Made by a program: the position numbers and the translations under genes | In this document: positions 2,244-63,818 of the stretch, piece after piece | Layout of the letters: each line of letters opens with the position of its first letter | Numbering within the stretch: position 1 is the first letter of the stretch | Notes under the pieces: generated by a model | Told to the model about the DNA's origin: nothing | The model's input: only the letters and a program-made list of their open reading frames with translations | Database searches by the model: none | NCBI GenBank assembly: GCA_963734015.1 | Contig: CAVTFG010000011.1 | Coordinates: forward strand, 17,842 to 81,841 | Direction: 5' to 3' | Origin: an uncultured bacterium | GTDB lineage: Bacteria > Actinomycetota > Thermoleophilia > Solirubrobacterales > 70-9 | DNA length: 64,000 bases

Positions 2244-4439
2244 CTAGTAGGTCTCGACGATGTCGTAGAGCGTCGTCCGCTGTGCGGGGGTCCGACCGGC
2301 GGCGCGCGCGGCGGCGATCAGGTCCTCGGGCTCCAGGCGGACGCCGTGCTGTGAGCCCGCCATTCGTGAGATGTTCTCCTCCATCAGCGTCCCGCCGAGG
2401 TCGTTCACGCCCCAACGCAGGCTCTCGGTGGCCGCGTCGATCCCCATCTTCACCCAGCTGGCCTGGAGGTTCTTCACGGTCCGGCCGAGCGCAAGGCGGA
2501 AGGCCGCCGTGTGCTTCAGGTTCTCTGCCCGCGAGATCTCTTCGATCCCGTGCGTACGTCCGAGCATGGTGTGAAACGGGATGAAGCTGAGCGGGACGAA
2601 CTCGGTGATGCCTCCGGTTCGCTCCTGCAGCTCGCGGATCACGTGCATGTGGCGGGCGAGCTCCCAGGGCTCCTCGATGTGGCCGAACATCACCGTCGAG
2701 GTCGAGCGCAGCCCGGACGCGTGGCAGGCCTCGATGATCTCCACCCAGCGCCCCGCGGGAAGCTTGTTCGGCGAGATCCGCCCCCGGACGCCGTCGTGCA
2801 GGACCTCGGCGGCGGTACCCGGCGTCGAGCCGAGTCCGCACTCGAGCAGATAGTCGAAGACCTGGGCCGGTGACCGGCCCGAGCGCTCGCACATGTAGTG
2901 GACCTCCATCGGCGAGTACGCGTGCAGGTGGAGCTGCGGGGCGACCTCCTTGGCGAGCCGGAGCCACCGCCCGTAGTGCTCCAGCTCGTAGTCCGGGTGG
3001 ATCCCGCCCTGCATGCAGATCTCGGTCGCGCCGAACTCGACCGCCTCGGCGACCCGCGCCTGGAAGTCCTCCTCGGTGACGTGGTAGGCGTCCGGCGAGC
3101 GCCGGCCCTGGCCGAACCCGCAGAACGCACAGCCGACGGTGCAGATGTTCGTGAAGTTGACGTTCCTGTTGACGACGAAGGTGGTGACGTCGCCCGCGAG
3201 CTCCTCCCGGAGCCGGTCGGCGCCGGCGCGCATCGCCTCGATCACCTCGGGACGCGTCTCGGCGAAGAGCGCGGTCAGCTCGTCCTCGGACAGCGCGTCG
3301 CCGCGCACGCCCCGCTCGATCGCCGCGGGCGCCAGGCCGGGGTCGATCGCCCGCTCGGCGCGCCGGCCGGATCCCTTCCGGGGGATGAAGCTCCAGTACT
3401 TGAGCTTCACCGCGTCGAGCACTCCCTGCTCCATCCACTCCGGCTCCAGGTACTGCGGATAGGCGCAGAGCCGCTCGGTCAGCGCGTAACCCTGGGGCTC
3501 CAGGCGCTTGCGGACCTCGTGCGGGCTCGGGAACGCGTGCTCCGGCGAGATGTGGTCGCCGTTGGCTGAGAGGCCGCCGAGGTCGGTCGCGCCCGCGGCC
3601 ACCAAGTCGTCCCACCAGTCCGCCAGGTTGGGCGGGATCTGGATGCCTGCTTCGGGCATCAGGCGGCGGGTCTCGGAGACCAGGCGTTTCATGTCCTCGA
3701 GCGTGATCGGGGTCGCCCAATCCGGAAGCGGCAGGCCCTCGTTGACGCTGGACGAGCTATTCGACCAGCGAGCCCTCGCAGCCTCGTCCGCGATCTCGGC
3801 CACCTCCCGCCCGTAGTAGCGGGGATGCGGAACGTAGTTTTGGAGGATCACCTCCTGGATATGGCCGTGGCGCTCGTGTGAACCGGCGAGCGCTTCGAGC
3901 GACGCGATCCGCTCGTCCTCGGTCTCCCCGATCCCGACCAGGATCCCGGAGGTGAACGGGATCCTGAGCTCGCCGGCCGCGTCGATCGTCGCCATGCGCA
4001 CGTCCGGGTGCTTCGACGGCGACCCGGCGTGGACGGTTTCCATCAGGCGCTCGGAGATCGACTCCAGCATCAGCCCCTGCGAGGCGGTCACCTCGCGCAG
4101 CCGGGCCAGATCGTCGTGCGAGAGGGCACCCAGGTTCGTGTGCGGCAGGAGGCCGCGCTCGAGCGCCCGCTCGCACGTGTAGACGACGTACGAGACGAAG
4201 TCCTCGTGCCCGTACGCGCGCAGCCGCTCCGCCACCTCGGCGTTCACCTCGGGTTGCTCGCCGGTCAGGACGAGCAGCTCCTTGGCGTTCCGCCTCAGCG
4301 CCTGCTCGAGCCGGTCCTCGACCTCATCGGGCGAGTAGAGGTGCGCCTTGCGCGTCGCAAACGCGCAGTACTTGCAGACGCACCGGCACGTCCGCGAGAG
4401 CGAGAGCGTGTAGTTACGCGAAAACGTGACGCGCCGCAC
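2244..4439 (-). CDS. fbiC: Bifunctional FO synthase (7,8-didemethyl-8-hydroxy-5-deazariboflavin synthase, fused CofG+CofH)
   Basis: 731 aa with two radical-SAM halves, each carrying CxxxCxxC (CRCVCKYC near the N-terminus, CTVGCAFC mid-protein). Length and order are typical of actinobacterial FbiC. Confidence 0.9.
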   Translation of the reverse strand: MRRVTFSRNYTLSLSRTCRCVCKYCAFATRKAHLYSPDEVEDRLEQALRRNAKELLVLTGEQPEVNAEVAERLRAYGHEDFVSYVVYTCERALERGLLPHTNLGALSHDDLARLREVTASQGLMLESISERLMETVHAGSPSKHPDVRMATIDAAGELRIPFTSGILVGIGETEDERIASLEALAGSHERHGHIQEVILQNYVPHPRYYGREVAEIADEAARARWSNSSSSVNEGLPLPDWATPITLEDMKRLVSETRRLMPEAGIQIPPNLADWWDDLVAAGATDLGGLSANGDHISPEHAFPSPHEVRKRLEPQGYALTERLCAYPQYLEPEWMEQGVLDAVKLKYWSFIPRKGSGRRAERAIDPGLAPAAIERGVRGDALSEDELTALFAETRPEVIEAMRAGADRLREELAGDVTTFVVNRNVNFTNICTVGCAFCGFGQGRRSPDAYHVTEEDFQARVAEAVEFGATEICMQGGIHPDYELEHYGRWLRLAKEVAPQLHLHAYSPMEVHYMCERSGRSPAQVFDYLLECGLGSTPGTAAEVLHDGVRGRISPNKLPAGRWVEIIEACHASGLRSTSTVMFGHIEEPWELARHMHVIRELQERTGGITEFVPLSFIPFHTMLGRTHGIEEISRAENLKHTAAFRLALGRTVKNLQASWVKMGIDAATESLRWGVNDLGGTLMEENISRMAGSQHGVRLEPEDLIAAARAAGRTPAQRTTLYDIVETY

Positions 4440-9069: not shown

Positions 9070-10214
9070 CAGCTCACGTCAAAGAAGCCCATCCACCCCA
9101 GCTCGGCGAACTCGGTCTTGTGGGCGTGGAACATGAACGGGCCGGGGTTCGGGAACGTCATCTCGAGGATCCCGCGCTGCGCCTGCCCCTGGATCACCGT
9201 GTCGGTGAACTCGGTGGGCTCGAGCCGCGTGCCGGTCGGGTAGTAGTCGAAGAAGTTCCCGTGGATGTGGAACGAGTTGATCGGGTCGTACTCCAGCGCG
9301 TTCACGAGGTAGATCCGCACCGGCTCGCCGCGGTTGACCTCGATCGGCTCCGCCATGTAGTGGAACGGGATCCCGTTGACGGCGTAGAACTGGTTGCCCT
9401 CGCCGTCGAAGGTGGTGTTGAAGCCGTGCTGCACCATCACCATCTCGTCCGCTTCCGGGCGGCCCTGCTTGGGATCGACGATGAACGTCCCGTACATGCC
9501 GCGCGCGATGTGCTCGGCCAGCGGCGCGACGTGGCAGTGGTAGAGGTGGAGCCCGAACGGCTCCGCGTCGAACTCATACACGGTCGACTTGCCCGGGTTG
9601 ATGATCCCGGCGCCCTGGCCCGGCACCCCGTCCATCGCCGAGGGATGCAGCCCGTGGAAGTGCACCGTGTGCGGGTGGGCGGAGCCGTTCACGAAGCGGA
9701 TCCGCAGCTTGTCGCCCTCGCGACAGCGCAACGATGGCCCGGGAATCCGGCCGTCGTACGTCCAGGCAGGGAACTTGACGCCGGGCGCGATCTCGATCTC
9801 CTTGTCGGCCGCGACGAGGGTCCACTCGCGGAGGATCCGTCCGCTGGCCATGCGCTTCGTCTTGCCGTAGTCGAAGTCGCGCAGGATCTCGGTCGGGTTG
9901 AACCCGTTCCCGTCGTGATCGACGTTCAGCCCCCCGCGGAAGGTTGGGCCGGCGGTGCCGAGCCCGTTCGCGTGCACGGGAACGCCGCCGTGCCCGGTGT
10001 GGCCGGCGGCGGCCGCGACCGCATCGGGATGCTGGTTGCCGCCGAGCGCGTCGTGGAGCCCCTGGTGCGGGACGACCTCGTGCAGCGCCGCCAGGGCGGG
10101 ACCCGCCGCGAGGGCGCCGCCGAGCAGGCGGCGGCGACTCAAGCGGTGCGCGCGCTCGTCGGCGTCGGGCTGTGAGGCCTCGACGATCTCGGCCTCGGGC
10201 TTTCGGCCTTCCAC
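9069..10214 (-). CDS. Tat-secreted two-domain multicopper oxidase (NirK-like cupredoxin pair)
   Basis: Twin-arginine signal (SRRRLLGGALAAG). Copper-ligand blocks HTVHFHGLH, YHCHVAPLAEHIARGMYG and FMFHAHK. Confidence 0.8.
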   Translation of the reverse strand: MEGRKPEAEIVEASQPDADERAHRLSRRRLLGGALAAGPALAALHEVVPHQGLHDALGGNQHPDAVAAAAGHTGHGGVPVHANGLGTAGPTFRGGLNVDHDGNGFNPTEILRDFDYGKTKRMASGRILREWTLVAADKEIEIAPGVKFPAWTYDGRIPGPSLRCREGDKLRIRFVNGSAHPHTVHFHGLHPSAMDGVPGQGAGIINPGKSTVYEFDAEPFGLHLYHCHVAPLAEHIARGMYGTFIVDPKQGRPEADEMVMVQHGFNTTFDGEGNQFYAVNGIPFHYMAEPIEVNRGEPVRIYLVNALEYDPINSFHIHGNFFDYYPTGTRLEPTEFTDTVIQGQAQRGILEMTFPNPGPFMFHAHKTEFAELGWMGFFDVS

Positions 10215-11674: not shown

Positions 11675-12949
11675 CTATCCCGAGGCGGAGTCGTCCGCCT
11701 CGGCCACGAGGGCGTCGATGCGGTCCAGCTTCTCCTGGAGCGACGCGATCATCGCGTCGAGGCCGGCCCGGGCCTTGTCCGAGCTGGTCTTGATGCCCGT
11801 GAGCATCGAGCGAATGGCCTGCGCCTGCTTGAGCAGCGTGATCGCCTCGGCGGTGATGTCGCGCACGGCCACCGCGTCGACGTCGAGCTCGCGGTCGCGC
11901 GCCATCAGGACTCGCGCCGCGGCGAGCCGATAGGCGACCTCGAGCACCAGCGAGTCGGGCTCCTCGCGGTCGACCGCCACGATCAGCTTGTTGCCCTCGT
12001 ACTCGGTGAGCTGCTCGCGGCCGGACGGAACGCGGTCCTCGCCGGCCACGACCAGCACGCCGAACGATGCGGCCCGTGCGGTCATGCCGCCATTCAGCTC
12101 GTTCCAGGCGGCGTGCTTCGAAAGCTTCTTGTCCTTTGCCTCGAACACGATCCGGCCCGTGGACGGCCCCTCGCCGGCGCCGAGCTCGATCAGCGTGTCG
12201 CCCTTCTTGCCGCCGCCTTCGGCGCCCTCGGTACCTGTGTGCGACGCGCAGTCACCGCGGCTGGACGCGATCCGCTCGACCGCCTTGTGTACGCGCTCCT
12301 CGAAGGTGAAGCCCTTGGCGGTGCCGCGCTCGGCCTCGGTGGCCACCCGCTCATCGGCGTCCTCGCGCTCGCGAAGCTCGATCACCTGGCGCTGGAGCGC
12401 CTCGATGCGCTTGCGGTTCGCCTCGCCCTCGTTCTGCTGGCGCTCGTCGAGCGCCTTGAGGCCGCGGACGACGGCTGCCTTGAAGTCCGTGAGCGGGTTC
12501 GCCCCGTCCTCGGCCGAGAACAGCTGGGCGATCTTCGTCCGCTGCTCCTCCAGCGCCTCGGACAGCATGGCGTCGATCTCCTTCTGCACGGATCCGTCGC
12601 GAGTACCGTCGAAGGTCTCGGCGATCCGCTCGGCAAGCTGCTGATCGCCGGTCTCGAGCGCCTTCGAGAGCCGCTCGCGCAGAGCTCCTGCGTGGCGCTC
12701 GAACTCGGCCCGGACGTAGTCGACGTTGACGGCCGTCTCCTCGGTGTCGAGAACCCGGGCGCCGATCTCGATGGCCTTCGTGATCGTGACGCCCGGCGGC
12801 TGGCCGGCCTCGGCCCGTTCACGAACGACGCGCGCGGCGCGCTCGTCGGTGAGCTCGAGCCGCTCGATCACGAGCCGGTCGCCGATCGCGCGGACCGCAC
12901 CCTGATCGATGCCGTCGAGTGGTAGTTGTGGCTTCTCCGAGGCTTCCAT
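11675..12949 (-). CDS. Coiled-coil protein with C-terminal PD-(D/E)xK nuclease-like core (DUF2130/RmuC-like architecture)
   Basis: Long Glu/Arg/Ala-rich helical N-terminal half, then KKGDTLIEL...GRIVFEAKDKKLSKHAAW (a D...ExK motif laid out as in DUF2130). Confidence 0.55.
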   Translation of the reverse strand: MEASEKPQLPLDGIDQGAVRAIGDRLVIERLELTDERAARVVRERAEAGQPPGVTITKAIEIGARVLDTEETAVNVDYVRAEFERHAGALRERLSKALETGDQQLAERIAETFDGTRDGSVQKEIDAMLSEALEEQRTKIAQLFSAEDGANPLTDFKAAVVRGLKALDERQQNEGEANRKRIEALQRQVIELREREDADERVATEAERGTAKGFTFEERVHKAVERIASSRGDCASHTGTEGAEGGGKKGDTLIELGAGEGPSTGRIVFEAKDKKLSKHAAWNELNGGMTARAASFGVLVVAGEDRVPSGREQLTEYEGNKLIVAVDREEPDSLVLEVAYRLAAARVLMARDRELDVDAVAVRDITAEAITLLKQAQAIRSMLTGIKTSSDKARAGLDAMIASLQEKLDRIDALVAEADDSASG

Positions 12950-13032
12950 AGTGGACGTTTCAAGGTAGTCGCGCGACCGGACGGGAACCTGACAGCTGCA
13001 ACGCGGCTACCATCCCGCGGCCCTCCAATGAA

Positions 13033-13092
13033 ATGGGTGAGCGACGTAAGGCGCGAAAGAAACACTGCCTCCCTGGCAAGGGATTGAGTTAG
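13033..13092 (+). CDS. Conserved 19-codon small ORF, copy A (MGERRKARKKHCLPGKGLS), ending 2 nt before the ccr GTG
   Basis: Nucleotide and peptide similarity to 45464-45523 and to 22157-22225 (reverse strand). Starts with ATG; TAG at 13090-13092. No clear SD. Confidence 0.45.
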   Translation: MGERRKARKKHCLPGKGLS

Positions 13093-13094
13093 GA

Positions 13095-14363
13095 GTGACG
13101 CAAGAAGTGGCTGTAGACGTATCCGAGGTCTCGAAGCTCGACGTGGAGCCCGGCTCGCTGCCGGAGACGATGGCGGCGTGGGTCATCCGGCCCGAGCGCG
13201 AGGGCGAGCCGAAGGACGCCTTCCAGATCGAGGAGATCGAGGTCCCCGAGCCGCAGGCGTTCGAGGTGATCGTCCGGGTCATGGCCGCCGGCGTCAACTT
13301 CAACAACGTCTGGGCGGCGCTCGGCAAGCCCGTTTCCGTGTTCGGCTACGGCGACCACCCGGAGTACGGCCACCACATCGGCGGCTCGGATGCCTCGGGC
13401 GTGGTCTGGAAGGTCGGCCCCGGAGTCACCAATTGGAAGCCCGGCGACGAGGTGGTGGTCCACTGCAACCAGGCGTCCTACGAGGACGTCGAGGTTCACG
13501 GCCTCGACCCGTTGGCGGCGCCCAGCCAGAAGATCTGGGGCTATGAGACCACCTGGGGCTCGTTCGCCCAGTTCACGAAGGTCCAGGCCCAGCAGCTCCT
13601 GCCGAAGCCGAAGAACCTCTCGTGGGTCGACTCGTCGGCCTACGGCCTCACGTACTTCACCGCCTACCGCATGCTGATGGACCGCTGCAGGGTGCAGGCC
13701 GGTCACAACGTCCTCATCTGGGGCGCCGCCGGCGGCCTCGGCGTCTTCGCGACGCAGATCTGCAAGGCGGCGGGCGCCAACGCGGTCGGCGTCGTCTCGT
13801 CGGCGGAGAAGGGCCGGCTGGTGAAGTCGCTCGGTGCCGTCGACTACATCGACCGCAACGAGTTCGCCGGGATGATGCGCAAGGGCGGCGAGACGCCGGA
13901 CGAGGAGAAGGAGCGCTTCGGTGTGAGCAGGGCGTTCGCGAAGAAGGTGAAGTCGATCCTGGGCGACGCGCCCGACATCGTCTTCGAGCACGTCGGCCAG
14001 GCGACGTTCCCCACCTCCGTCTTCACCGTCAAGCCGTTCGGCAAGGTCGTGATCTGCGGAGCCACCTCGGGCTACACCCTCGACTTCGACGTCCGCTATC
14101 TGTGGATGAAGCAGAAGGAGATCCTGGGCTCGCACTTCGCGAACGCGTACGAGTGCATGCGCGCCAACCAGCTCATGGCGGAGGGCAAGATCCGCCCGGT
14201 GCTGTGGAAGGCGATGGGCTTCGACGGAGTCCCCGAGGCGCATCAGCTCATGCACGAGAACAAGCACGCGGGCAAGATCACGACGATGGTCGGCGCCACC
14301 GACAAGGACGAGGGCCAGGACGTGGACGGTCCGGGCGCGATCTGGGCCGAGGTGGGCGCGTAG
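13095..14363 (+). CDS. ccr: Crotonyl-CoA carboxylase/reductase
   Basis: Ccr-type MDR. It has the long N-terminal extension, AAGVNFNNVW, the HCNQASYEDVEVHGLDP...IWGYETTWGSFAQF block characteristic of Ccr, and GAAGGLG. An alternative start is GTG 13107. Confidence 0.88.
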   Translation: MTQEVAVDVSEVSKLDVEPGSLPETMAAWVIRPEREGEPKDAFQIEEIEVPEPQAFEVIVRVMAAGVNFNNVWAALGKPVSVFGYGDHPEYGHHIGGSDASGVVWKVGPGVTNWKPGDEVVVHCNQASYEDVEVHGLDPLAAPSQKIWGYETTWGSFAQFTKVQAQQLLPKPKNLSWVDSSAYGLTYFTAYRMLMDRCRVQAGHNVLIWGAAGGLGVFATQICKAAGANAVGVVSSAEKGRLVKSLGAVDYIDRNEFAGMMRKGGETPDEEKERFGVSRAFAKKVKSILGDAPDIVFEHVGQATFPTSVFTVKPFGKVVICGATSGYTLDFDVRYLWMKQKEILGSHFANAYECMRANQLMAEGKIRPVLWKAMGFDGVPEAHQLMHENKHAGKITTMVGATDKDEGQDVDGPGAIWAEVGA

Positions 14364-17257: not shown

Positions 17258-18100
17258 TCAGGCGGCCTGCTCGGCCTCGCGGCGCTTGCGCCAGTAGCGG
17301 TCGAGCCCCAGCCAGAGCTGATCCGGCGGCATCGCCTGTCGCAGGCGCTCCGCGATCTCACCGCCCTCGGCGTCGAAGCGGCCCGCGAGCCAGGCGGCGA
17401 ACCGCGCCCGATCCCCGGGCTCGCTCTCCGCGGTGGCCTCCGCCAGCCAGGACTCGAGCCGGCCGAGCTGGCCCGCGACATCCGCGCTCGCCCCGAAATG
17501 AGTGATGCAGAGCCGCGCGGGATCGAGCGAGCGCAGCATCGCCAGCGACTCGCGCCAGGCCTCGACCTCGATCTCGGGCGGCGGCGTCGGCGCGGCGACG
17601 AGCTCGGAGGGCGGCACCCGGACCCCGGCGACGTCGCCGCAGTAGGCGTCGCGCGACGCGGGGTCGAAGTAGACGACGTGGTGGCGCGCGTGGCCCGGTG
17701 CGTAGTGCACCTCGAGGCCCTCGACCTCCTCCCCGCCCTCGAGGACGGTCACCCGCTCGGCCGGCACGGGTGCGACCTCGCCCCACAGCGTCTCCATCTG
17801 GTCGCCGTAGAGGCGGCCGGCGCTCGCGACCAGGCGCGACGGGTCGATCACGTGCGGGGCGCCGACCTCGTGGACGTAGACCCGGAGGTCCGGGAAACGC
17901 CGCGCGAGGACGCCCGACGCCCCGGCGTGGTCGAGGTGGATGTGGCTGAGGAGCAGCGCGCGGGGCTCGGCCTCGACCCCGGCCAGGAGCGTGTGCGAGC
18001 AGGACGCCGGGCCCGGGTCGACGATCACGCCGGGCTGGACCTCCCAGGCGCCGATCACCCGGTCGCGGCCCATGTGCATGCAGTCGATGACGTTCGCCAT
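17258..18100 (-). CDS. MBL-fold metallo-hydrolase
   Basis: HxHxDH motif (LLLSHIHLDHAGASG) plus downstream His/Asp ligands. Confidence 0.85.
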   Translation of the reverse strand: MANVIDCMHMGRDRVIGAWEVQPGVIVDPGPASCSHTLLAGVEAEPRALLLSHIHLDHAGASGVLARRFPDLRVYVHEVGAPHVIDPSRLVASAGRLYGDQMETLWGEVAPVPAERVTVLEGGEEVEGLEVHYAPGHARHHVVYFDPASRDAYCGDVAGVRVPPSELVAAPTPPPEIEVEAWRESLAMLRSLDPARLCITHFGASADVAGQLGRLESWLAEATAESEPGDRARFAAWLAGRFDAEGGEIAERLRQAMPPDQLWLGLDRYWRKRREAEQAA

Positions 18101-18125
18101 CGCAAGAGAAACCTAGAATGTCGGT

Positions 18126-20127
18126 ATGGCCGAGCACCGCCTGCCCGACCCGGACCGCCCCTGGGTCATGCGCACGTACGCGGGCCATTCGGACGCCCGC
18201 CGGTCGAACGAGCTCTACCGCCGCAACCTCGCGAAGGGCCAGACGGGCCTGTCCGTCGCCTTCGACCTGCCCACCCAGACCGGGTACGACCCCGACGCCG
18301 TGCTGGCGCGTGGCGAGGTCGGCAAGGTCGGCGTCTCGATCGCGCACAAGGGCGACATGCACGCCCTGTTCGACGGCATCCCGCTGGGCGAGATGAACAC
18401 GTCGATGACGATCAACGCAACCGCGGCCTGGCTGCTGGGCCTCTACTGCGCGGTCGCCGAGGAGAACGGAGTCGAGCTGTCGGCGCTCAAGGGGACCACC
18501 CAGAACGACATCATCAAGGAGTACCTCTCGCGCGGCACCTACGCCTTCCCGCCCGGCCCGTCGATGCGCCTGATCGCGGACACCGTCGCGTTCTCCGTCA
18601 ACGAGATCCCGAGCTGGAACCCGACCAACGTCTGCAGCTACCACCTCCAGGAGGCCGGGGCCACGCCCGTCCAGGAGATCGCGTACGCGCTCTCGACCGC
18701 GATCGCAGTGCTCGACGAGGTGCGCTCGCGCGGCCAGGTGGCCGAGGAGGACTTCCCGAAGGTCTTCGGCCGGATCTCGTTCTTCGTCAACGCCGGTGTC
18801 CGGTTCATCGAGGAGCACGCGAAGCTGCGCGCGATGTCCGAGCTCTGGGAGGAGATCGGGCGCGACCGCTACGGCGTCACGGACGAGAAGTACCTGCGGC
18901 TGCGCTACGGCGTGCAGGTCAACTCGCTCGGCCTGACCGAGTCGCAGCCGGAGAACAACGTCCCGCGGATCGTGCTCGAGGCCCTTGCGGTGACGCTCGG
19001 CCGCGACGCCCGCGCCCGGGCGATCCAGCTGCCCGCCTGGAACGAGGCCCTCGGCCTGCCCCGGCCGTGGGACCAGCAGTGGAGCCTCCGCATCCAGCAG
19101 ATCCTCGCCTTCGAGACCGACCTCCTGGAGTACCCGGACATCTTCGAGGGCTCGAAGGTCATGGACGGGCTCGTCGCCGAGCTGGTGGACGGCGCCCGGG
19201 CCGAAATGGCGGTGGTCGAGGAGCAGGGTGGCGCGGTCGAGGCGGTGCCCTACATGAAGGCCCGCCTGGTCGAGTCGCACCGCGAGCGGATCGCCCGGAT
19301 CGAGCGGGGCGAGATCAAGGTGATCGGCCAGAACTCGTTCACGGAGTCCGAGGACTCGCCGCTCACCGCGGACGCGGACGGCGGCATCCTCACGCCCGAT
19401 CCGGAGGTCGAGCGCGAGTGCCGCGACGCCCTCGAGAAACTGGCGCGCGGAGCGGGATTCGGACGCCGTCGAGAAGGCGCTCGCCGACCTGCGCGAGGCC
19501 GCCGCCGACGAGCAGCGGAACATCATGCCCGCCACGATCGCGGCGGCCAAGGCGGGCGTGACGACCGGCGAGTGGGCGCAGGCCCTGCGCGATGCGTTCG
19601 GCGACTACCGCGGGCCGACCGGAGTCGGCGCGTCGTCGTCCGGAGCGTCCGAGGAGCTGCTCGCCGGAATTCGCGCGCGGGTGGACGAGGTCTCCGACGC
19701 GCTCGGGCACCGGATCCGCATCCTGGTCGGCAAGCCCGGCCTCGACGGGCACTCCAACGGCGCCGAGCAGATCGCGGTGCGTGCGCGAGACGTGGGCATG
19801 GAGGTGATCTACCAGGGGATCCGCCTCACGCCCGAGCAGATCGCGGCGTCGGCGGCCGACGAGGACGTGGACGTCGTCGGGCTCTCGATCCTGTCCGGCT
19901 CACACCTGGAGCTGATCCCGGACACGGTCCGGATGCTGCGCGAGCGCGACGTCGACGCGCCGGTCGTGATCGGCGGCATCATCCCCGCCGGCCACGAGCA
20001 GAAACTGCTCGACGCCGGCGTGGCCCGCGTCTACACGCCGAAGGACTTCGAGATCAACCGGATCATGGGCGAGATCGTGGAGCTGATCGCCCAGCGGGCC
20101 GGCGCCGAGGCGAAGGCTCCCGCCTGA
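18126..20127 (+). pseudogene. ecm: Ethylmalonyl-CoA mutase (MeaA/Ecm-type fused B12 mutase) interrupted by a +1 frameshift near 19440
   Basis: N-terminus RPWVMRTYAGHS...GQTGLSVAFDLPTQTGYD...NTSMTINATA...VCSYHLQEAGATPVQE. After ...RDALEK (19437-19439) homology continues one base downstream as WRAERDSDAVEKALADLREAAADEQRNIMPATIAAAKAGVTTGEW, followed by the B12-binding domain (GKPGLDGHSNG). The frame-0 continuation is Arg-rich nonsense. Confidence 0.85.
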
Positions 20128-21675: not shown

Positions 21676-21783
21676 TCGAAGCTCGGCGTGATCAGCCGTG
21701 CGAGTCCGCAGCCGCGAGGCTCGGCAGGTCGACCACGAGCCGCGACAGCCGCTCGCCCCTCAGGTCGACGGCCTCGCGGATGC

Positions 21784-22167
21784 TTCTTCGCCACCTTCCC
21801 GCAGCTCGAGGGGATCCGCTTCAGCCACCGGTGGGGCGGCGCGATCGACACCTGCAGCCGGTTCTTCGCGTTCACCGGAACCTCGCACGGCGGGCGGGTC
21901 GCATACACGGTCGGCCATACCGGCCTGGGCGTCTGCGCGAGCCGGTTCGGCGCCGGCCTGGCCCTCGACGTCCTCCACGGAACGGCGAGCGAGGCCGCCG
22001 GACTGCACAGCATGAGAAGCAGGCCCATGCCCTTCCCGCCCGAGCCGCTTCGCTGGGCGGCGATCCAGCTGACCCGTAGCCGCCTCGCCGCAGCCGACCG
22101 CAAGCGGGGCGAGCGCGGTTGGTGGTTGCGCGCGCTCGACCGGGCCGGGCTGGGCTTCAACAGCTGA
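21784..22167 (+). pseudogene. C-terminal remnant (~125 aa) of an FAD-dependent oxidoreductase (DAO/PuuB-like)
   Basis: FPQLEGIRFSHRWGGAIDTCSRFFAFTGTSHGGRVAYTVGHTGLGV...PFPPEPLRWAAIQLT...LDRAGLGFNS matches the C-terminal third of ~460-aa enzymes. The FAD-binding N-terminus is absent, and upstream in-frame sequence is Arg-rich junk. Confidence 0.7.
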
Positions 22168-22225
22168 GAAACACTGCCTTACCGGGCGGGCGAACATGCT
22201 TTCGCGACTTGCGTCGCTCACTTGA
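22157..22225 (-). repeat. Third, inverted and start-less copy of the conserved small-ORF element (..SSERRKSRKHVRPPGKAVFLSC*)
   Basis: About 85% nucleotide identity to copy B over ~48 nt (GTGAGCGACGCAAG.CGCGA.AGCATGTT.GCCC.CC.GG.AAG). The ATG GGT is replaced by TCA AGT. Confidence 0.6.
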
Positions 22226-22237
22226 TCTAATGTCGGC

Positions 22238-23233
22238 ATGGCGATCGGGGCGTTCATCGGCACCGGGCGCAACCTCGAGCGCGCGCTCGACCGGGTCCGG
22301 CGCGCGGAGGAGCTGGGCTACGAATCGGCCTACGTCACGCACATCGCCGCGCGCGACTCGCTCACGGTCCTCACCCGCTACGCGTCCGTTACCGAGCGCA
22401 TCCGGCTCGGCACGGGCGTCCTCCCCATCTTTTCGCGCACGCCCGCGTCGGCGGCTCAGACCGCCGCCACCATCGACGAGATCTCGAACGGGCGGATGGT
22501 TCTGGGGATCGGCGTGTCGCACCGGGTCACGGTCGAGCATTGGTTCGACGCCGAGATCACGAAGCCGGTCACTCAGATGCGCGAATACGCCGGGATCGTC
22601 CGGGCGATCCTGAACGGCGAGGAACCCCCTGCCGGAGAGTTCTTCAACTCCAGGTTCGCGTTCATGGGCTATCCGCCCCGTCCGGAGCTGCCGATCTATA
22701 TCGCCGCCCTGTCCCCGAACATGCTGCGCCTGGCCGGCGAGATCGCGGACGGCGTGATGCTCTGGCTCTGCAACCCCCAGTACATCCGCGAGACGGTGAT
22801 CCCCGAGGTCAGGAGCGGCCGTGAGCGGGCCGGCAAGACGCTCGAGGGGTTCGACGTCGTCGCCGCGGTCCCGGTCGGCGTCACGGACGACCCCGACGCA
22901 GCACGCGCCGCGTTCCGCGAGGACCTGATCCCGTACGCGTCGCTGCCGTTCTATCGCGCGATGCTCGAGCGCTCCGGCTTTGGCGCCGACCTCGCGGCTT
23001 TCGACGAGGGGATGGCCGGGGGAGACCCCGACCAGGCGATGGCGGGCCTCTCCGACGAGCTGCTCGCCTCGCTCGCGGGGCTCGGCGACGGCGACGCCGC
23101 CCGCGCCAAGGTCGTCGAGTACCAGGAGGCGGGCACGACCTCGCCCTGCATCGGCGGCATCCCGAGCGCCGGCTTCGATGCGGCGCTCGAGGCTGTGGCC
23201 GAGATCACAGAAGGATCTCCGGCACAGGCGTAG
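22238..23233 (+). CDS. LLM-class (luciferase-like) flavin/F420-dependent oxidoreductase
   Basis: TIM-barrel LLM pattern (ELGYESAYVTH..., GRMVLGIGVSH, PIYIAALSPNMLRLAGEIADG). Confidence 0.85.
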   Translation: MAIGAFIGTGRNLERALDRVRRAEELGYESAYVTHIAARDSLTVLTRYASVTERIRLGTGVLPIFSRTPASAAQTAATIDEISNGRMVLGIGVSHRVTVEHWFDAEITKPVTQMREYAGIVRAILNGEEPPAGEFFNSRFAFMGYPPRPELPIYIAALSPNMLRLAGEIADGVMLWLCNPQYIRETVIPEVRSGRERAGKTLEGFDVVAAVPVGVTDDPDAARAAFREDLIPYASLPFYRAMLERSGFGADLAAFDEGMAGGDPDQAMAGLSDELLASLAGLGDGDAARAKVVEYQEAGTTSPCIGGIPSAGFDAALEAVAEITEGSPAQA

Positions 23234-23272
23234 GTTGATCCCAGGCAGAGTCAGCGCTCGGAGGGAAACGAA

Positions 23273-24418
23273 ATGAGCGAACGCCAGATCGTCGTGGTCG
23301 GCGCCGGGCAATCGGGGTTGTCCGCCGCCCTCAGCCTGAAGGACATGGGTCTCGACCCGTTGGTGCTCGAGCGGACCGACGCCGTCGCCTCGGCGTGGCG
23401 CGGTCGCTACGACCGCCTCAAGCTGAACACGTGGCGCGCTCACTCGCACCTCCCCGACAGGCCGTTTCCGAAAGGGACTCCCACGTTCCCTTCCCGCGAT
23501 CAGGTCGTCCAGCACCTCGAACGGCACGCCGCCGAGGAGGGCCTCGAGTTCCGGTTCGGCACCGAGGTCGAGCGGATCGACCGGGACGGGGGGCGGTGGC
23601 ACGTGACCACGCGGGAGGGCGACGTCCGTAGCCCCCAGGTCGTCGTCGCGACCGGTTACGAGAACGATCCCTTCATCCCCGATTGGCCCGGCCGCGATCG
23701 GTTCGATGGCGAGTTGCTCCACGCGCGCGACTACAAGCGGCCCGCGCCCTACGCGGGCAAGCGCGTGCTCGTGGTCGGCCCCGGGTGCACCGGCATGGAA
23801 ATCGCGTTCGACCTCGCCGAGGGCGGCGCCGGCAAGGTTTGGCTCGCCGCGCGCACACCGCCGAACATCCTGCTGCGGGAGGGTCCGGCCGGCGTGCCGG
23901 GAGACGTGATCGGCAGCGTCCTGTTGCATACGCCGGTTCGGTTCGCCGACTGGTTCGCCAACTTCGGCCGACGCATGGACGTCGGCGACCTGACCGAGCA
24001 CGGTCTGCCGGTGCCGGAGGAGGGCGTGTTCTCCCGCATGTACCGACTGGGTGTGGCGCCCGCGATCATTGACAAGGAGATCCTCGGGGCGATCAAGTCG
24101 GGCGCGATCGAAATCGTGCGTGGCGTGGAGTCACTGGATCCGCGCGGCGTCGCTCTTGCGGACGGCGCCACCGTGGAGCCCGACGCGATCATCTGTGCGA
24201 CCGGCTATCGCCGCGGGCTGGAGCCGCTGGTCGGCCATCTCGACGTGCTCGGCGAGCGCGGGGTGCCGCGGGCGCTCGGCCCGAAGCCGGCCGCCCCAGG
24301 ACTCCGCTTCATCGGGTACGTCCCGCGTCCCGGCGGTCTCGGCTACATGGCCAAGGAGGCCAAGCGCGCCGCCAAGGCGATCAAGGGTGAGCTCGCGTCC
24401 GCGCCCGTGGCCGCTTGA
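23273..24418 (+). CDS. Flavin-containing monooxygenase / NAD(P)-FAD-dependent oxidoreductase
   Basis: Two dinucleotide-binding motifs: VVVGAGQSGLSAA and VLVVGPGCTGMEIA. Confidence 0.85.
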   Translation: MSERQIVVVGAGQSGLSAALSLKDMGLDPLVLERTDAVASAWRGRYDRLKLNTWRAHSHLPDRPFPKGTPTFPSRDQVVQHLERHAAEEGLEFRFGTEVERIDRDGGRWHVTTREGDVRSPQVVVATGYENDPFIPDWPGRDRFDGELLHARDYKRPAPYAGKRVLVVGPGCTGMEIAFDLAEGGAGKVWLAARTPPNILLREGPAGVPGDVIGSVLLHTPVRFADWFANFGRRMDVGDLTEHGLPVPEEGVFSRMYRLGVAPAIIDKEILGAIKSGAIEIVRGVESLDPRGVALADGATVEPDAIICATGYRRGLEPLVGHLDVLGERGVPRALGPKPAAPGLRFIGYVPRPGGLGYMAKEAKRAAKAIKGELASAPVAA

Positions 24419-28791: not shown

Positions 28792-28837
28792 GGCTCCTGT
28801 CTTCGGGTCGCTTCGGGCGCCAGAGGATATTCGAGAG

Positions 28838-45002: not shown

Positions 45003-45464
45003 GTGACCGCCGCCACCCGCAGCACCGCCCCGGCCGACCTCGAGGCTTTCCGCGAGGCGTGGGACGAGTTCTTCGGGGCGGTTCGCCGAGCGCGCGGCCG
45101 CGCGGCGCGTGAGAGCGCCCCGGGCTCCCTGACCCTGGCGCAGTTCCAGCTTCTGGCGGCGTTCGCCGACGCGCGCGAGCTGAGCGTCGGCGAGCTTGCG
45201 CTGGCCGGCGGCGTCGCGCCCCCCACCGCGACCCGCATGCTCACCGGACTCGAACGCGACGGGATCGTCGAGCGCCGGCCGTCCGAGGTGGACCGGCGGA
45301 GCGTGCGCGTCCGCCTGACGCCGAACGGCCGTCGCGTGTTGCGCGCGAAGCGCAAGCTGGTGGCCGCCAAGCAGCGGGCGATCTTCGAGACCCTGACCAC
45401 CACCGAGCGACGCCAGTCCGAGTCGATCCTCCGCCGCCTGGCCGTGGCGATGGAGGAGTTGTGA
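45003..45464 (+). CDS. MarR-family transcriptional regulator
   Basis: wHTH region LTLAQFQLLAAFADARELSVGELALAGGVAPPTATRMLTGLERDGIVERRPSEVDRRSVRVRLT. Confidence 0.9.
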   Translation: MTAATRSTAPADLEAFREAWDEFFGAVRRARGRAARESAPGSLTLAQFQLLAAFADARELSVGELALAGGVAPPTATRMLTGLERDGIVERRPSEVDRRSVRVRLTPNGRRVLRAKRKLVAAKQRAIFETLTTTERRQSESILRRLAVAMEEL

Positions 45465-45523
45465 TGGGTGAGCGACGCAAGGCGCGACAGCATGTTTGCC
45501 CCCCTGGCAAGAAATGTCCATGA
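45464..45523 (+). CDS. Conserved 19-codon small ORF, copy B (MGERRKARQHVCPPGKKCP), overlapping both neighbours
   Basis: Its ATG shares one base with the marR TGA (TGATG), and its TGA overlaps the MFS ATG (ATGA). SD GGAGGAG lies 5 nt upstream. Paralogous to 13033-13092. Confidence 0.55.
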   Translation: MGERRKARQHVCPPGKKCP

Positions 45524-46992
45524 ATCCACACCTGAACCCCGGTCGTCAGCACTACGGCCTGACCCTCGCCGTCCTGCTGATCGCCGCCCTCGCCTTCGCC
45601 CTGCAACAGACGATGGTCGCCCCCGCCCTGCCGGCGATCCAGGAGGAGCTGGATACCTCCACCACGGCGGTGACCTTCGTACTCACCGGTTTCCTTTTGA
45701 CCGCCTCGGTCTCCACTCCCATCATGGGCCGTCTCGGCGACATGTTCGGCAAGGAGCGGATGCTCGTGATCGCGCTCCTGATCTTCGGACTGGGCTCGCT
45801 GGTCTGCGCGCTCTCGCACTCGATCGAGGTCCTGATCGCGGGCCGCGGGATCCAGGGCATTGCCGCGGCGGTGTTCCCCCTGGCCTTCGGGATCATCCGC
45901 GACGAGTTCCCGCCCGAGCGCGTGGCGACGGGCATCGGCCTGATCAGCGCCACGTTCGGCATCGGCGGCGGCGCCGGCCTCGTCCTGAGCGGGTTGATCG
46001 TCGACCACCTGGCCTACGAGTGGATCTTCTGGCTCGGTCTGGTGTTCATCGCCGTCGCGATCGTGGCCACGTTCCTCTGGGTGCCGGAGTCGCCCGTGAA
46101 GAGTCCGGCCAAGATCGACTGGGGCGGCGCCGCTCTGCTGTCGGGAACGCTGGTCTCGCTCCTGGTCGGCGTCAGCGAGGCGAACTCGTGGGGCTGGGGC
46201 TCGCCCGAGATCCTGGGGCTGTTCGCCACCTCGGCGATTCTCTTCATGACGTGGGTCAGGTACGAGCGGCACCAACCCGAGCCGTTGGTGGACATCGCGA
46301 TGATGCGCGAGCGCGCCGTGCTGACCACAAACCTGACGGCGTTGATGGTTGGCTTCGGGATGTTCGGGTCGTTCATCCTGATCCCACAGCTCGTGCAGCT
46401 GCCCGAGTCCACCGGCTTCGGCTTCGGCGCCACGGTGACGCAGGCAGGCCTGTTCATGGCTCCCTCGGCGGCGATCATGCTCGTCGCGGGGCCGCTGGCG
46501 GGCTGGCTGGGCAGCCGTTTCGGCTCCCGCCTCCCGCTGCTGATCGGCACCGCGCTGACCGCGGTCAGCTTCGCGATCCTCGCCCTGGCCCACGAGGACC
46601 GCGCTTGGATCTATGTCTCGAGCGGCATCCTCGGCCTCGGCATCGGCTTCGCGTTCGCGTCGATGGCCAACCTCGTCGTGGAGGCGGTCCACCCGAGCCG
46701 CACCGGCGTCGCCACCGGGATCAACACGATCATGCGCACGATCGGCGGCTCGCTCGGCGGCCAGATCGCGGCGACGATCGTGGCTTCCACCGTGCTCGCC
46801 TCAACCGGCCTGCCGGAGGAGTCCGGGTTCGAGCTCGCGTTCGCGCTGTCGGGCGTGGGGATGGTCGGCGCGTTCGTGGCCGCGCTGGCGATCCCGCGGG
46901 ATCTGCCCTACTCCCCCACGCGCGTGGCGCGGGAGACGGTCGCGGCGACCACGCCCCTGGCCGGCCCCAGCGCCTCTGGCGGGAGCCAGTGA
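45520..46992 (+). CDS. MFS transporter, DHA2 (14-TMS, EmrB/QacA-like) drug:H+ antiporter family
   Basis: 14 hydrophobic segments, motif A-like GRLGDMFGKERM and motif C-like region. The track ORF begins at 45496; ATG 45520 is preferred because of the small-ORF coupling. Confidence 0.88.
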   Translation: MNPHLNPGRQHYGLTLAVLLIAALAFALQQTMVAPALPAIQEELDTSTTAVTFVLTGFLLTASVSTPIMGRLGDMFGKERMLVIALLIFGLGSLVCALSHSIEVLIAGRGIQGIAAAVFPLAFGIIRDEFPPERVATGIGLISATFGIGGGAGLVLSGLIVDHLAYEWIFWLGLVFIAVAIVATFLWVPESPVKSPAKIDWGGAALLSGTLVSLLVGVSEANSWGWGSPEILGLFATSAILFMTWVRYERHQPEPLVDIAMMRERAVLTTNLTALMVGFGMFGSFILIPQLVQLPESTGFGFGATVTQAGLFMAPSAAIMLVAGPLAGWLGSRFGSRLPLLIGTALTAVSFAILALAHEDRAWIYVSSGILGLGIGFAFASMANLVVEAVHPSRTGVATGINTIMRTIGGSLGGQIAATIVASTVLASTGLPEESGFELAFALSGVGMVGAFVAALAIPRDLPYSPTRVARETVAATTPLAGPSASGGSQ

Positions 46993-47567
46993 CCGGCATT
47001 GGTCTCCAGGTATTCCGGGGACAGTCCCCCGGCCTCGAGTAGCTGCCGCGCACGGCGCGCGAACTCGACCGAGATGACCGGGTCGTTGGCGCCGTGATGG
47101 ATCAGCACCTGAAGCTGCTCGCGGCCCGCGAGCTCCGGCTGCCAGCCGTCCACGGTCGGGATGAAGCCGCTGAACGCGAGTAACCCGCCGGGCAGCGGGC
47201 GATCCGGGCCCAGGGCGACCGAGTAGGACATCACCGCGCCCATTGAGAACCCGCCGATCACCGTGCGGTCCCAGCCGATCCCGCGCGCGGCGAGCAGCTG
47301 GTCCAGGAACCCGGTCAGCAGCCCGTAGCTCGCCTGGAAGGTCTCGGGCTCGGGATAGCCGACGCGCGGGACCAGGTACCAGTGGCGGCCTCCGGGCGGC
47401 ACATCGGTCAGCGGGGCGCCGGTCGTGACCCCCAGCAGCCGGCGATCCGGGTCGAGTTCGTCGAGCAGGCCGAACAGGTCGTTCTCATCCGAGCCACGTC
47501 CGTGGTTCAAGACCAGGGCGCCCTGCGGCTGCCCCTCCGGCTCGCGGAGCAGATGGACCAGGCTCAT
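46908..47567 (-). CDS. Phospholipase/carboxylesterase-family alpha/beta hydrolase (MhqD-like)
   Basis: LVLNHGRGSDENDL, nucleophile elbow GGFSMGAVM, and a catalytic His near the C-terminus. Confidence 0.82.
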   Translation of the reverse strand: MSLVHLLREPEGQPQGALVLNHGRGSDENDLFGLLDELDPDRRLLGVTTGAPLTDVPPGGRHWYLVPRVGYPEPETFQASYGLLTGFLDQLLAARGIGWDRTVIGGFSMGAVMSYSVALGPDRPLPGGLLAFSGFIPTVDGWQPELAGREQLQVLIHHGANDPVISVEFARRARQLLEAGGLSPEYLETNAGHWLPPEALGPARGVVAATVSRATRVGE

Positions 47568-62686: not shown

Positions 62687-63187
62687 CTAGCCGCAGACGG
62701 GCCAGTGCTGGCGGCCGTCGCGCTTCTTGAGCGCCACTGCGACCACGGCCTGGGTCTTCCAGTTGTAGTCGATCGGGTCGCCGCCGGGGGTCTTCGGCGA
62801 GTGACGCCAGGTCGAGCGCATGAACTGGAACGCGCCGCGATACATGCCGCCGCCGCCGATCGCGTTCGGATCGCCGCCCGACTCGCAGCGGCTCGTCCTG
62901 CGTGCCCAACGGCGGTTGCGGTCCGAGTAATCCTCCCAGATGCTCGCGTAGCGGCTCTTGCTCTTGGCGGCCTTGGAGCTGTCGCCACCACCGCCACCGC
63001 CACCGCCGGTGGCGCCGATTCCGCCGCCGCTTTCCGCGCCGGCGTCAGCGGTCGCCAGGCCGGCGAACATCGCCACGACGGCCATCACGACCGCCCAGAA
63101 CGCGAACCGGTCGGGCCGAGGGTTGGTGCGCTCGCGGCGCCTGTCAGTTTGGGTTGTCGCCCGTTCGGGCGTGAAAAGTTCTTCCAT
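62687..63187 (-). CDS. Rpf-like transglycosylase-domain protein (membrane-anchored, Gly-rich linker)
   Basis: TM anchor, poly-Gly linker, then CESGGDPNAIGGGGMYRGAFQFMRSTW (transglycosylase-like/Rpf core). Confidence 0.82.
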   Translation of the reverse strand: MEELFTPERATTQTDRRRERTNPRPDRFAFWAVVMAVVAMFAGLATADAGAESGGGIGATGGGGGGGGDSSKAAKSKSRYASIWEDYSDRNRRWARRTSRCESGGDPNAIGGGGMYRGAFQFMRSTWRHSPKTPGGDPIDYNWKTQAVVAVALKKRDGRQHWPVCG

Positions 63188-63194
63188 GGTTTCT

Positions 63195-63335
63195 GATCGC
63201 TTGCGGGGTTAGCTGTCGGGCTCGCGCCTGAAACTGGCGCTACGTGGCAGAGGCCATGCGATTCGCCCCGGGACCTCGGTCCGTTGGGTCCCCCGCTCCC
63301 CGCGATATGTAGGCGGGGATTCAGCGGAAGTCGGC
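63195..63335 (-). promoter_or_regulatory. c-di-AMP riboswitch (ydaO/yuaA class) in the rpf-like 5' leader
   Basis: The minus strand reads ...GCUGAAUCC...AGCGGGGGACCCA...GGGGCGAAUC...GCCCGACAGCUAACCCCGCAAGCG. This reproduces the conserved ydaO blocks, including the terminal CAGCUAACC.CG.AAGCG. Confidence 0.88.
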
Positions 63336-63370
63336 GGCAGATTAGCAGAAGATCAGACGATGGTTTGCAC

Positions 63371-63477: not shown

Positions 63478-63818
<341 letters not shown>

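Follow-up and report, generated by a model that had tools for sequence, protein, structure and literature searches.

Directly upstream of the gene for crotonyl-CoA carboxylase/reductase (ccr; TIGR01751, 485.7 bits against a cutoff of 378.6), a small open reading frame (ORF) occupies positions 13033..13092 on the plus strand of the window, by which we mean the whole stretch of 64,000 nucleotides analysed here. It reads ATG GGT GAG CGA CGT AAG GCG CGA AAG AAA CAC TGC CTC CCT GGC AAG GGA TTG AGT TAG and would encode MGERRKARKKHCLPGKGLS. A twin, which would encode MGERRKARQHVCPPGKKCP, lies at 45464..45523 on the same strand, and the source names of the Ccr and MFS homologues suggest that the host belongs to the Solirubrobacterales. 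Both ORFs have the sequence given in the preliminary description, which was also right that the first eight codons of the two agree except for one synonymous change (CGT/CGC), and that the ORF before ccr lacks a Shine-Dalgarno (SD) sequence and has an out-of-frame ATG 5 nt upstream (at 13028). The reported TAG (13090-92), AGGAG (13091-95) and GTG (13095) are there as well. The likeness of the two copies (hereafter A, at ccr, and B) is far beyond chance: they agree at 23 of their first 24 nt, with CGT/CGC the only difference, and at 14 of 15 nt at TGCCYCCCTGGCAAG, and have the ATG, the frame and the C-x-P-G-K motif in common. A search for the 23-mer with up to 3 mismatches returned these two sites against an expectation of 0.01, and none of 100 shuffled sequences gave two matches.

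How close is this ORF to the true beginning of ccr? The preliminary description set its TAG beside a ccr start at GTG 13095; both are present, and GTG 13095 is merely the first in-frame start codon of the ccr ORF. The real start is most likely GTG 13107, 14 nt past the TAG (giving ccr as 13107..14363, plus strand), because Ccr is 418 aa long in most of its 120 closest homologues and because nucleotide conservation with relatives begins at GTGGCTGTAGACG. The lengths of 418-439 aa called for Ccr in relatives reflect mis-called starts. The AGGAG at 13091..13095 (plus strand), which overlaps the small-ORF TAG and had been taken to be formed by the stop region of that ORF, lies 11 nt before GTG 13107, and the same AGGAG, 11 nt and GTG are present in two relatives that lack the element (L114 and L116); it is thus the native SD of ccr and not of the element's making. 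A reading of the conserved TAGGA(T/G) before ccr as a -10 box was rejected, as the native SD fits better: every relative has AGGA, 11 nt and a GTG. Relatives differ greatly in the ccr leader (L059/L060 compared with L061-L063 and the window), with some 35-45 nt extra and a second SD (GAGAGGAGAAGC) in L059/L060 and with AGGAT, 11 nt and GTG in L061/L063. Because ccr retains its own AGGAG and start, the proposal that it is translated by termination-reinitiation is unlikely to be correct, and so is any dependence of ccr on the small ORF.

The small ORF is one frame in a copy of a repeat of about 57-66 nt that occurs three times in the 64 kb of the window (copies A, B and C). A scan of the window with a covariance model of the repeat (R1) gave 61.8-75.4 bits for the copies and 8.3 bits for the next best match. 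Copy A spans 66 nt of the ccr leader/promoter region (13025..13090, plus strand; blastn breakpoints against L114 at 13024/13091; R1 match 13029-13098, 61.8 bits, E 1e-17). It contains a first hairpin at 13041..13054 (plus strand; GCGAC-GTAA-GGCGC, five pairs including one A.G, a GYAA loop, GTGA before and GAAAG after) and a second at 13070..13083 (plus strand; TCCCT-GGCA-AGGGA). The reported ORF uses frame +2 of the repeat. An alternative small ORF at 13028..13087 (plus strand; ATG AAA TGG GTG AGC GAC ..., encoding MKWVSDVRRERNTASLARD) uses frame 0, which is the one typical of the family.

Copy B (45459..45525, plus strand; R1 match 45460-45529, 67.5 bits) has a degenerate second hairpin and fills the entire spacer between a gene for a MarR regulator, upstream, and one for an MFS transporter, downstream. 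The ATG of its small ORF overlaps the TGA of marR (TGATG), and its TGA overlaps the ATG of the MFS gene (ATGA). Copy C (22160..22229, minus strand; R1 75.4 bits) lies in a 70-nt gap and is 86% identical to copy B (E 8e-9, sensitive blastn, about 22172-22221, minus strand). Its neighbours, a DAO-like remnant at 21688-22167 and a luciferase-like (LLM) monooxygenase gene at 22238-23233 (Pfam), are both on the plus strand, so that copy C is antisense to each of them. In copy C the GERRK frame has no start codon (ATCAAGTGAGCG), and the P-P-G codons of copies B and C differ by three changes, each of them synonymous in that frame. The ORF of 159 aa at 21688-22167 (plus strand), which adjoins copy C, represents the 3' part that remains of a gene for a DAO-type FAD oxidoreductase, which is intact in L116 (482 aa), split in L117 and missing in L114. 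Two shadow ORFs span copies B and C in frame (45468-47042, plus strand, 524 aa, and 22157-24001, minus strand, 614 aa); neither has a Pfam match, both have the wrong GC3 pattern, and they could mislead gene callers into reporting repeat-protein fusions.

A metagenome scan with the nucleotide core GTGAGCGACGNAAGNCGCGANAG matched 46 loci, of which about 37 belong to the family; these stand for about 25 distinct loci with a G+C content of about 69-72%. The true members continue with CATGTTTGCC-CGCC-TGGCAA-GG..., a stretch that lies outside the searched pattern; the remaining matches are due to chance and include low-G+C, eukaryote-like contigs. In L078, L083 and L108 (38-42% G+C) the 23-nt pattern sits within a different conserved context (GTTGCAAGGGCGAGYGTGAGCGACGNAAGTCGCGARAGGTCGACTT), and their low G+C, together with a match to the histone 3' stem-loop in L108, indicates that they are probably eukaryotic and unrelated to the repeat. 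The preliminary description held that the element precedes unrelated genes and is portable, which the wider sample bears out: copies adjoin ccr, the MFS gene, the luciferase-like monooxygenase gene and many others in the roughly 25 metagenome loci. R1 found no extra copies in the other fetched loci apart from a tandem pair in L109 (3113-3238, minus strand; period about 55-57 nt). This pair and a degenerate second half-copy in L082/L093 (L082 2416-2500) indicate that small arrays of the repeat occur, tandem arrays being rare (one case in about 27 loci). No match was found in plasmids, phages or viral contigs, and an origin from any of these was rejected; a literature search for the core sequence returned unrelated primers only.

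The consensus of the repeat is GTGAGCGACGYAAGKCGCGAAAGCATGTTTGCC-CGCC-TGGCAA-GGCAGG with AT/T-rich ends, and an information-content profile places its edges at about -10 and +57 relative to GTGAG, with an ATG signal at +56 to +58. From 5' to 3', a copy consists of an AT-rich end that often contains or adjoins a stop codon, a nearly invariant module, GTGA-[GCGAC-GYAA-GKCGC]-GAAAGCATGTT, that contains hairpin 1, a second hairpin with a co-varying stem and a purine-rich, SD-like 3' arm and tail, and a T-rich end that usually leads into a start codon. Both hairpins are predicted by RNAalifold. No copy varies in hairpin 1 (GCGAC-GYAA-GKCGC), although the search pattern partly imposes this on the first 23 nt, and it is because they form this hairpin that the first eight "codons" of the reported ORF are conserved. 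In hairpin 2, all four upper pairs show compensatory changes (GC:14/CG:10/UA:1, CG:24/UA:2/GC:1, CG:26/GC:4 and UA:21/CG:7), with a covariation score of 0.188 compared with 0.077 ± 0.012 in shuffled alignments (none of 500 reaching it) and 0.02-0.08 with slid partners. Single-sequence folds of the repeat are no better than shuffled ones (z = 0.1 to 0.9).

Several further identities for the structure were considered. A closing stem between the 5' and 3' flanks (P1) was rejected (permutation p = 0.39), and in a candidate pseudoknot between UUGCC and the GGCAA loop the variation at the outer positions of the alignment is uncompensated. A hammerhead ribozyme, considered for the GUGA-stem-GAAA arrangement, was rejected, as the CUGANGA core is absent, the equivalent of A6 is an invariant G and the equivalents of C3-G5 vary. 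A known structured RNA or riboswitch was also rejected, since none of Rfam 15 matches at gathering or relaxed thresholds, the best sub-threshold matches being Bacillaceae-1 (13.5 bits against 35) and CRISPR-DR35 (15.2 bits against 35). Elsewhere in the window, a c-di-AMP (ydaO/yuaA) riboswitch (63184-63336, minus strand; 67.6 bits) and a class A RNase P RNA (63480-63809, minus strand; 194.6 bits) lie about 150 nt apart on the same strand. A search of the repeat for a promoter role found no sigma-70-like site. A terminator role was rejected, as the one terminator-like hairpin is on the strand opposite copy A and is not a feature of the family.

Filled and empty sites were compared at seven loci, including strains at 97-99% nucleotide identity; homologues of the monooxygenase led to contigs with 98-99% identity to the window across about 20 kb. 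The comparison shows gain or loss of the repeat at single sites among strains as close as 97-99%. At the site of copy A, L114 (98-99% nucleotide identity) has 13 nt in place of the 66 nt of the window, and the copy is also absent in L116 (about 90-92%) and in the orthologous DUF2130-ccr gap of five relatives (L059-L063); the preliminary description had named retention of the element upstream of ccr in relatives as a test of its proposal, and the result went against it. Copy B is absent in all three relatives examined (L064, with 96% amino acid identity, L065 and L067); two of the three, at 83%, have overlapping genes (GTGA), and none has the small ORF at the marR-MFS junction. Copy C is present in L114, L115 and L117; L116 lacks it and has an intact DAO gene, with a spacer of 22 nt before the monooxygenase gene.

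Other sites are empty in the window and filled in a relative. At 18108..18110 (minus strand), the 99% identical L117 is filled (3605-3674), directly upstream of a gene for a metallo-beta-lactamase-fold protein. At 28830..28832 (minus strand), a 59-nt copy replaces GAA between identical flanks in L081/L085 (97-99% identical). At 9071..9072 (minus strand), L105 has a 57-nt copy in frame: the protein that ends in ...GWMGFFDVS becomes one ending in ...GWMGFFDVSDARRESRFAPPAEANFEVE, which adds 19 residues to the C-terminus of the upstream protein and preserves the TGATG junction. Filled and empty alleles differ by replacement of 3-13 nt, not by clean insertion, and with no duplication. The flanks of the copies hold no copy-specific direct repeats or target-site duplication (permutation p = 0.51) and no terminal inverted repeats, their complementarity being no better than that of permuted pairs. 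No mobilising gene was found in the 64 kb of the window or in the short metagenome contigs. The divergent gap at 18085-18135 (L114 6240-6290), between the genes for the metallo-beta-lactamase-fold protein and a methylmalonyl-CoA-mutase-like protein, is only 25 nt long, and a TAGAAT 6 nt before the ATG of the latter gene resembles the promoter of a leaderless mRNA.

To the left of copy A, the DUF2130-like region (12000-13024) is 92.7% identical to L114 (180-1229), with 35 gaps, and identity rises to 98.3-99.2% over the next 20 kb to the right; copy A seems to lie at the boundary of a recombination tract. Because the left tract is so unusually diverged from L114, copy A may have arrived by homologous recombination of a larger tract and not by transposition. 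The copy makes no stop/start contact, has no upstream cistron and lies 14 nt from the real ccr start. In the ccr leader it is most likely an almost neutral insertion, because no co-oriented gene upstream delivers ribosomes to its small ORF, the ORF lacks an SD and ccr retains its own SD and start.

The repeat is found almost only in very short intergenic gaps and mostly in sense, with 21 sense and 6 antisense loci relative to adjacent genes (judged by a heuristic on GC3; genes in the metagenome loci are called heuristically throughout). Frame 1 of the repeat is closed by conserved stops, and frames 0 and 2 are open. Most sense copies have a frame-0 ORF that starts at the repeat's own GTG (GTG AGC GAC ...) and gives VSDVRRESMFARLARQVF, and in many of them this GTG comes right after the upstream stop or overlaps it (TAAGTG, TAGTG, GTGA). 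Frame 2 (GERRKAR...) is used by copies A and B of the window and by L090/L094, where a GERRKARKNV... ORF is coupled by TGATG. A stop codon touches a start codon in about 9 of 14 independent sense loci: as TGATG in L070 and L105, as GTGA in L079, as ATGA in L098 and L110, in varying form (TAGATG/TGATG/TAATG) among the 9 orthologues that make up the single L076 locus, and also in L091, in L090/L094 and at copy B. Part of this pattern could be due to survivorship or to inherited ancestral overlaps. Downstream starts cluster at +56/57 from GTGAG, and the peptide varies between copies whereas the stop/start contact recurs. Among the antisense copies, some lie directly upstream of an smpB-like gene, known by its N-terminus only (MAKKAKRK...ASNRRASHKYEF; L095 1516-1600 / L112, and L103 5218-5302). 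An antisense mini-ORF in L095, MLSRLTSLTNNH, ends in TGATG on the smpB-like start codon; this mini-ORF (MLSRLxSLT) was rejected as a designed feature, as its start codon is unconserved (CTG, CCT, ATT).

Here, we propose that the reported small ORF is an incidental frame in one copy of a short interspersed repeat of soil Solirubrobacterales that resembles the mycobacterial MIRUs and survives by way of ribosome hand-over, a reading that we consider probable. The repeat is interspersed and indel-polymorphic and has a conserved two-hairpin core. The unit under conservation is the hairpin sequence, as DNA or RNA, and not the peptide. Two of the three frames run open through the repeat, so that ribosomes could move on from the upstream stop to the start that follows; this would explain why copies survive in tight junctions. 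Ribosomes that end the upstream gene would read either a filler ORF of about 19 codons or an in-frame extension of that gene, would then terminate on or beside the downstream start codon and re-initiate there, which is the behaviour that has been proposed for mycobacterial MIRUs. Translation of the small ORFs is a prediction of this reading. The hairpins would most likely be a recognition feature of a putative mobilising machinery, or a feature that acts at the RNA level.

Copy B offers the best place for such a relay. A 96%-identical relative has at this junction a 13-nt spacer with its own SD (GGAGGGA), which is gone in the window, and the loss of this native SD, together with the TGATG...ATGA wiring, makes a ribosome relay from marR through the ORF to the MFS gene plausible; we infer that it probably operates. 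Of the preliminary description's portable regulatory or translational module, then, the portability holds and a translational relay at copy B is plausible, and what had to be given up is the peptide, the conserved unit being nucleic acid.

What else might such a repeat be? One option is that it is selfish or recombinational debris at the level of DNA, of the REP/RAYT or IS200/IS605-end kind, with hairpins that serve as recognition sites in single-stranded DNA and with ORFs and stop/start contacts that merely reflect survivorship. The hairpins and the fixed 5' GTGA, which recalls the GTAG of REPs, are consistent with this, as are the occurrence of both orientations, the lack of target duplications that is expected for single-strand transposition, and the restriction to intergenic sites in all but the one in-frame case. 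However, it leaves unexplained both the orientation bias towards the transcribed strand and the clustering of start codons at +56/57, and the G.U pairs of hairpin 2, found in its lower stem in 15 sequences, would turn into C.A mismatches if the opposite strand were the one that folds. We regard it as unlikely, though worth keeping in mind.

A bolder form of our own reading would make the repeat a mobile and translationally transparent "intercistronic adaptor", which carries a stop codon of its own, a filler ORF that can be read in two frames, a hairpin-masked SD-like arm and an end that lies close to the start, and which colonises and possibly re-tunes the stop/start junctions of operons; its near-invariant GTGA-hairpin-GAAAG module might even be bound by a protein, either of the host or encoded by the element, and so co-regulate the translation of dozens of unrelated genes downstream. 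We offer this as a speculation that is rather unlikely to be right as a whole.

Still less probable is a cis-acting regulatory RNA, an operator for a trans-acting RNA-binding protein or ligand, that would place ccr, the MFS pump, the LLM oxidoreductase, smpB and other genes under a common post-transcriptional control, with hairpin 2 masking the SD-like tract. Such a role could account for the very strong conservation of the 5' module, the covariation of hairpin 2 and the sense bias of 21:6, and also for the position of the repeat, 6-15 nt ahead of start codons, for its purine-rich 3' arm (L098, for example, has AAGGGAGGTG) and for its retention at one junction in 9 diverged orthologues. Against it, six copies run antisense to the genes beside them, strains at 97-99% identity differ in whether a copy is present, copies occur in tandem in L109, one copy is read in frame as part of a protein (L105), and the downstream genes have no functional theme in common; moreover, single-sequence folds are no better than shuffled ones and there is no Rfam match.

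The peptide was pursued across 185,579 species genomes with a DNA pattern codon-degenerate for ATGGGNGARCGNCGNAARGCNCG, which gave 58 matches; these were NusB N-termini, another recurring longer ORF, or chance, with C-x-P-G-K in none of them. A bL37-like ribosomal protein or another named small protein was rejected, there being no NCBIfam match. That the ORF is a conserved small protein or leader peptide (MGERRKAR...C-x-P-G-K), with stalling or termination-reinitiation controlling the downstream gene, is therefore very improbable: the frame, ATG and C-x-P-G-K that copies A and B have in common, the three synonymous differences of copies B and C at P-P-G and the TGATG-coupled GERRKARKNV... ORF of L090/L094 speak for it, but copy C lacks a start codon and runs antisense to the genes on either side, most members couple through a different frame that encodes an unrelated peptide, the scanned genomes hold no such small ORF, the element is absent upstream of ccr and of the MFS gene in close relatives, and the changes in hairpin 2 are compensatory at the level of nucleotides.

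Our preferred reading, that of a MIRU-like repeat, rests its name on a comparison with the mycobacterial elements. MIRUs are intergenic or intercistronic repeats of 40-100 bp, with filled and empty sites, occasional tandems and G-C-rich internal inverted repeats (Supply et al. 1997, via PMC12548453 and PMC3184786). The ends of their small ORFs overlap the flanking stop and start codons (-4/-1 spacing), and their insertion barely disturbs expression (PMC12548453, PMC3184786); their size, filled and empty sites and ORFs that overlap adjacent genes are all described in PMC3184786. The present repeat resembles them in its actinobacterial host, its size within 40-100 bp, its intergenic dispersal, its filled and empty sites, its occasional tandems, its G-C-rich internal inverted repeats and its junction-overlapping ORFs. 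It differs in having neither tetranucleotide direct repeats nor imperfect terminal inverted repeats, in that about one fifth of its copies are antisense, in that the coupled frame varies and tandems are rare, and in its host class, the Thermoleophilia, which is very distant. By this analogy of behaviour, we consider the repeat to be a new family of the MIRU-like kind.

Other classes of repeat share some of its traits. REP/BIME elements are extragenic hairpin repeats of 21-65 nt that have a fixed 5' tetranucleotide, GTAG, and occur in many copies, and those in intercistronic positions affect mRNA stability. The present repeat is also short, extragenic, hairpin-bearing and multicopy, with a fixed 5' tetranucleotide. 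It is made, however, of two different hairpins and a conserved single-stranded linker rather than of one long imperfect palindrome, its 5' motif is GTGA and not GTAG, and there are no inverted pairs (REPINs) among the R1 matches. Unlike MITEs, it has no terminal inverted repeats and no target-site duplication. The palindromic elements of Rickettsia and the enterobacterial RU/ERIC elements are 100-170 bp long, MITE-like or palindromic, and found in frame within genes (PMC3184786, PMC2759123). The repeat is like them in having open frames that can be fused to host genes, as at the 3' end of the L105 gene with its 19 added codons, but in-frame fusion is the exception for the repeat and placement at a junction is the rule. 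Finally, copy B, whose ORF lies upstream of and overlaps a transporter gene after a MarR regulator, recalls the leader-peptide or upstream-ORF attenuators of efflux and resistance genes; the difference is that the peptide of the repeat is unconserved, that no alternative terminator/antiterminator was found in it and that the ORF is absent in orthologous operons.

For annotation, these findings mean that the 19-codon ORFs should not be called a conserved small-protein family and that the start of ccr should be moved to 13107. The natural filled and empty alleles in strains at 97-99% identity, along with the read-through protein tail, make the effect of the repeat on translational coupling and on the fate of the mRNA directly testable, and the two-hairpin core provides a handle for finding what mobilises it. 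A repeat that sits at a junction would keep ribosome hand-over possible there. MIRU-like behaviour would not be a mycobacterial oddity, as the present repeat settles in the stop/start junctions of a deep-branching and largely uncultured order of Actinobacteria.
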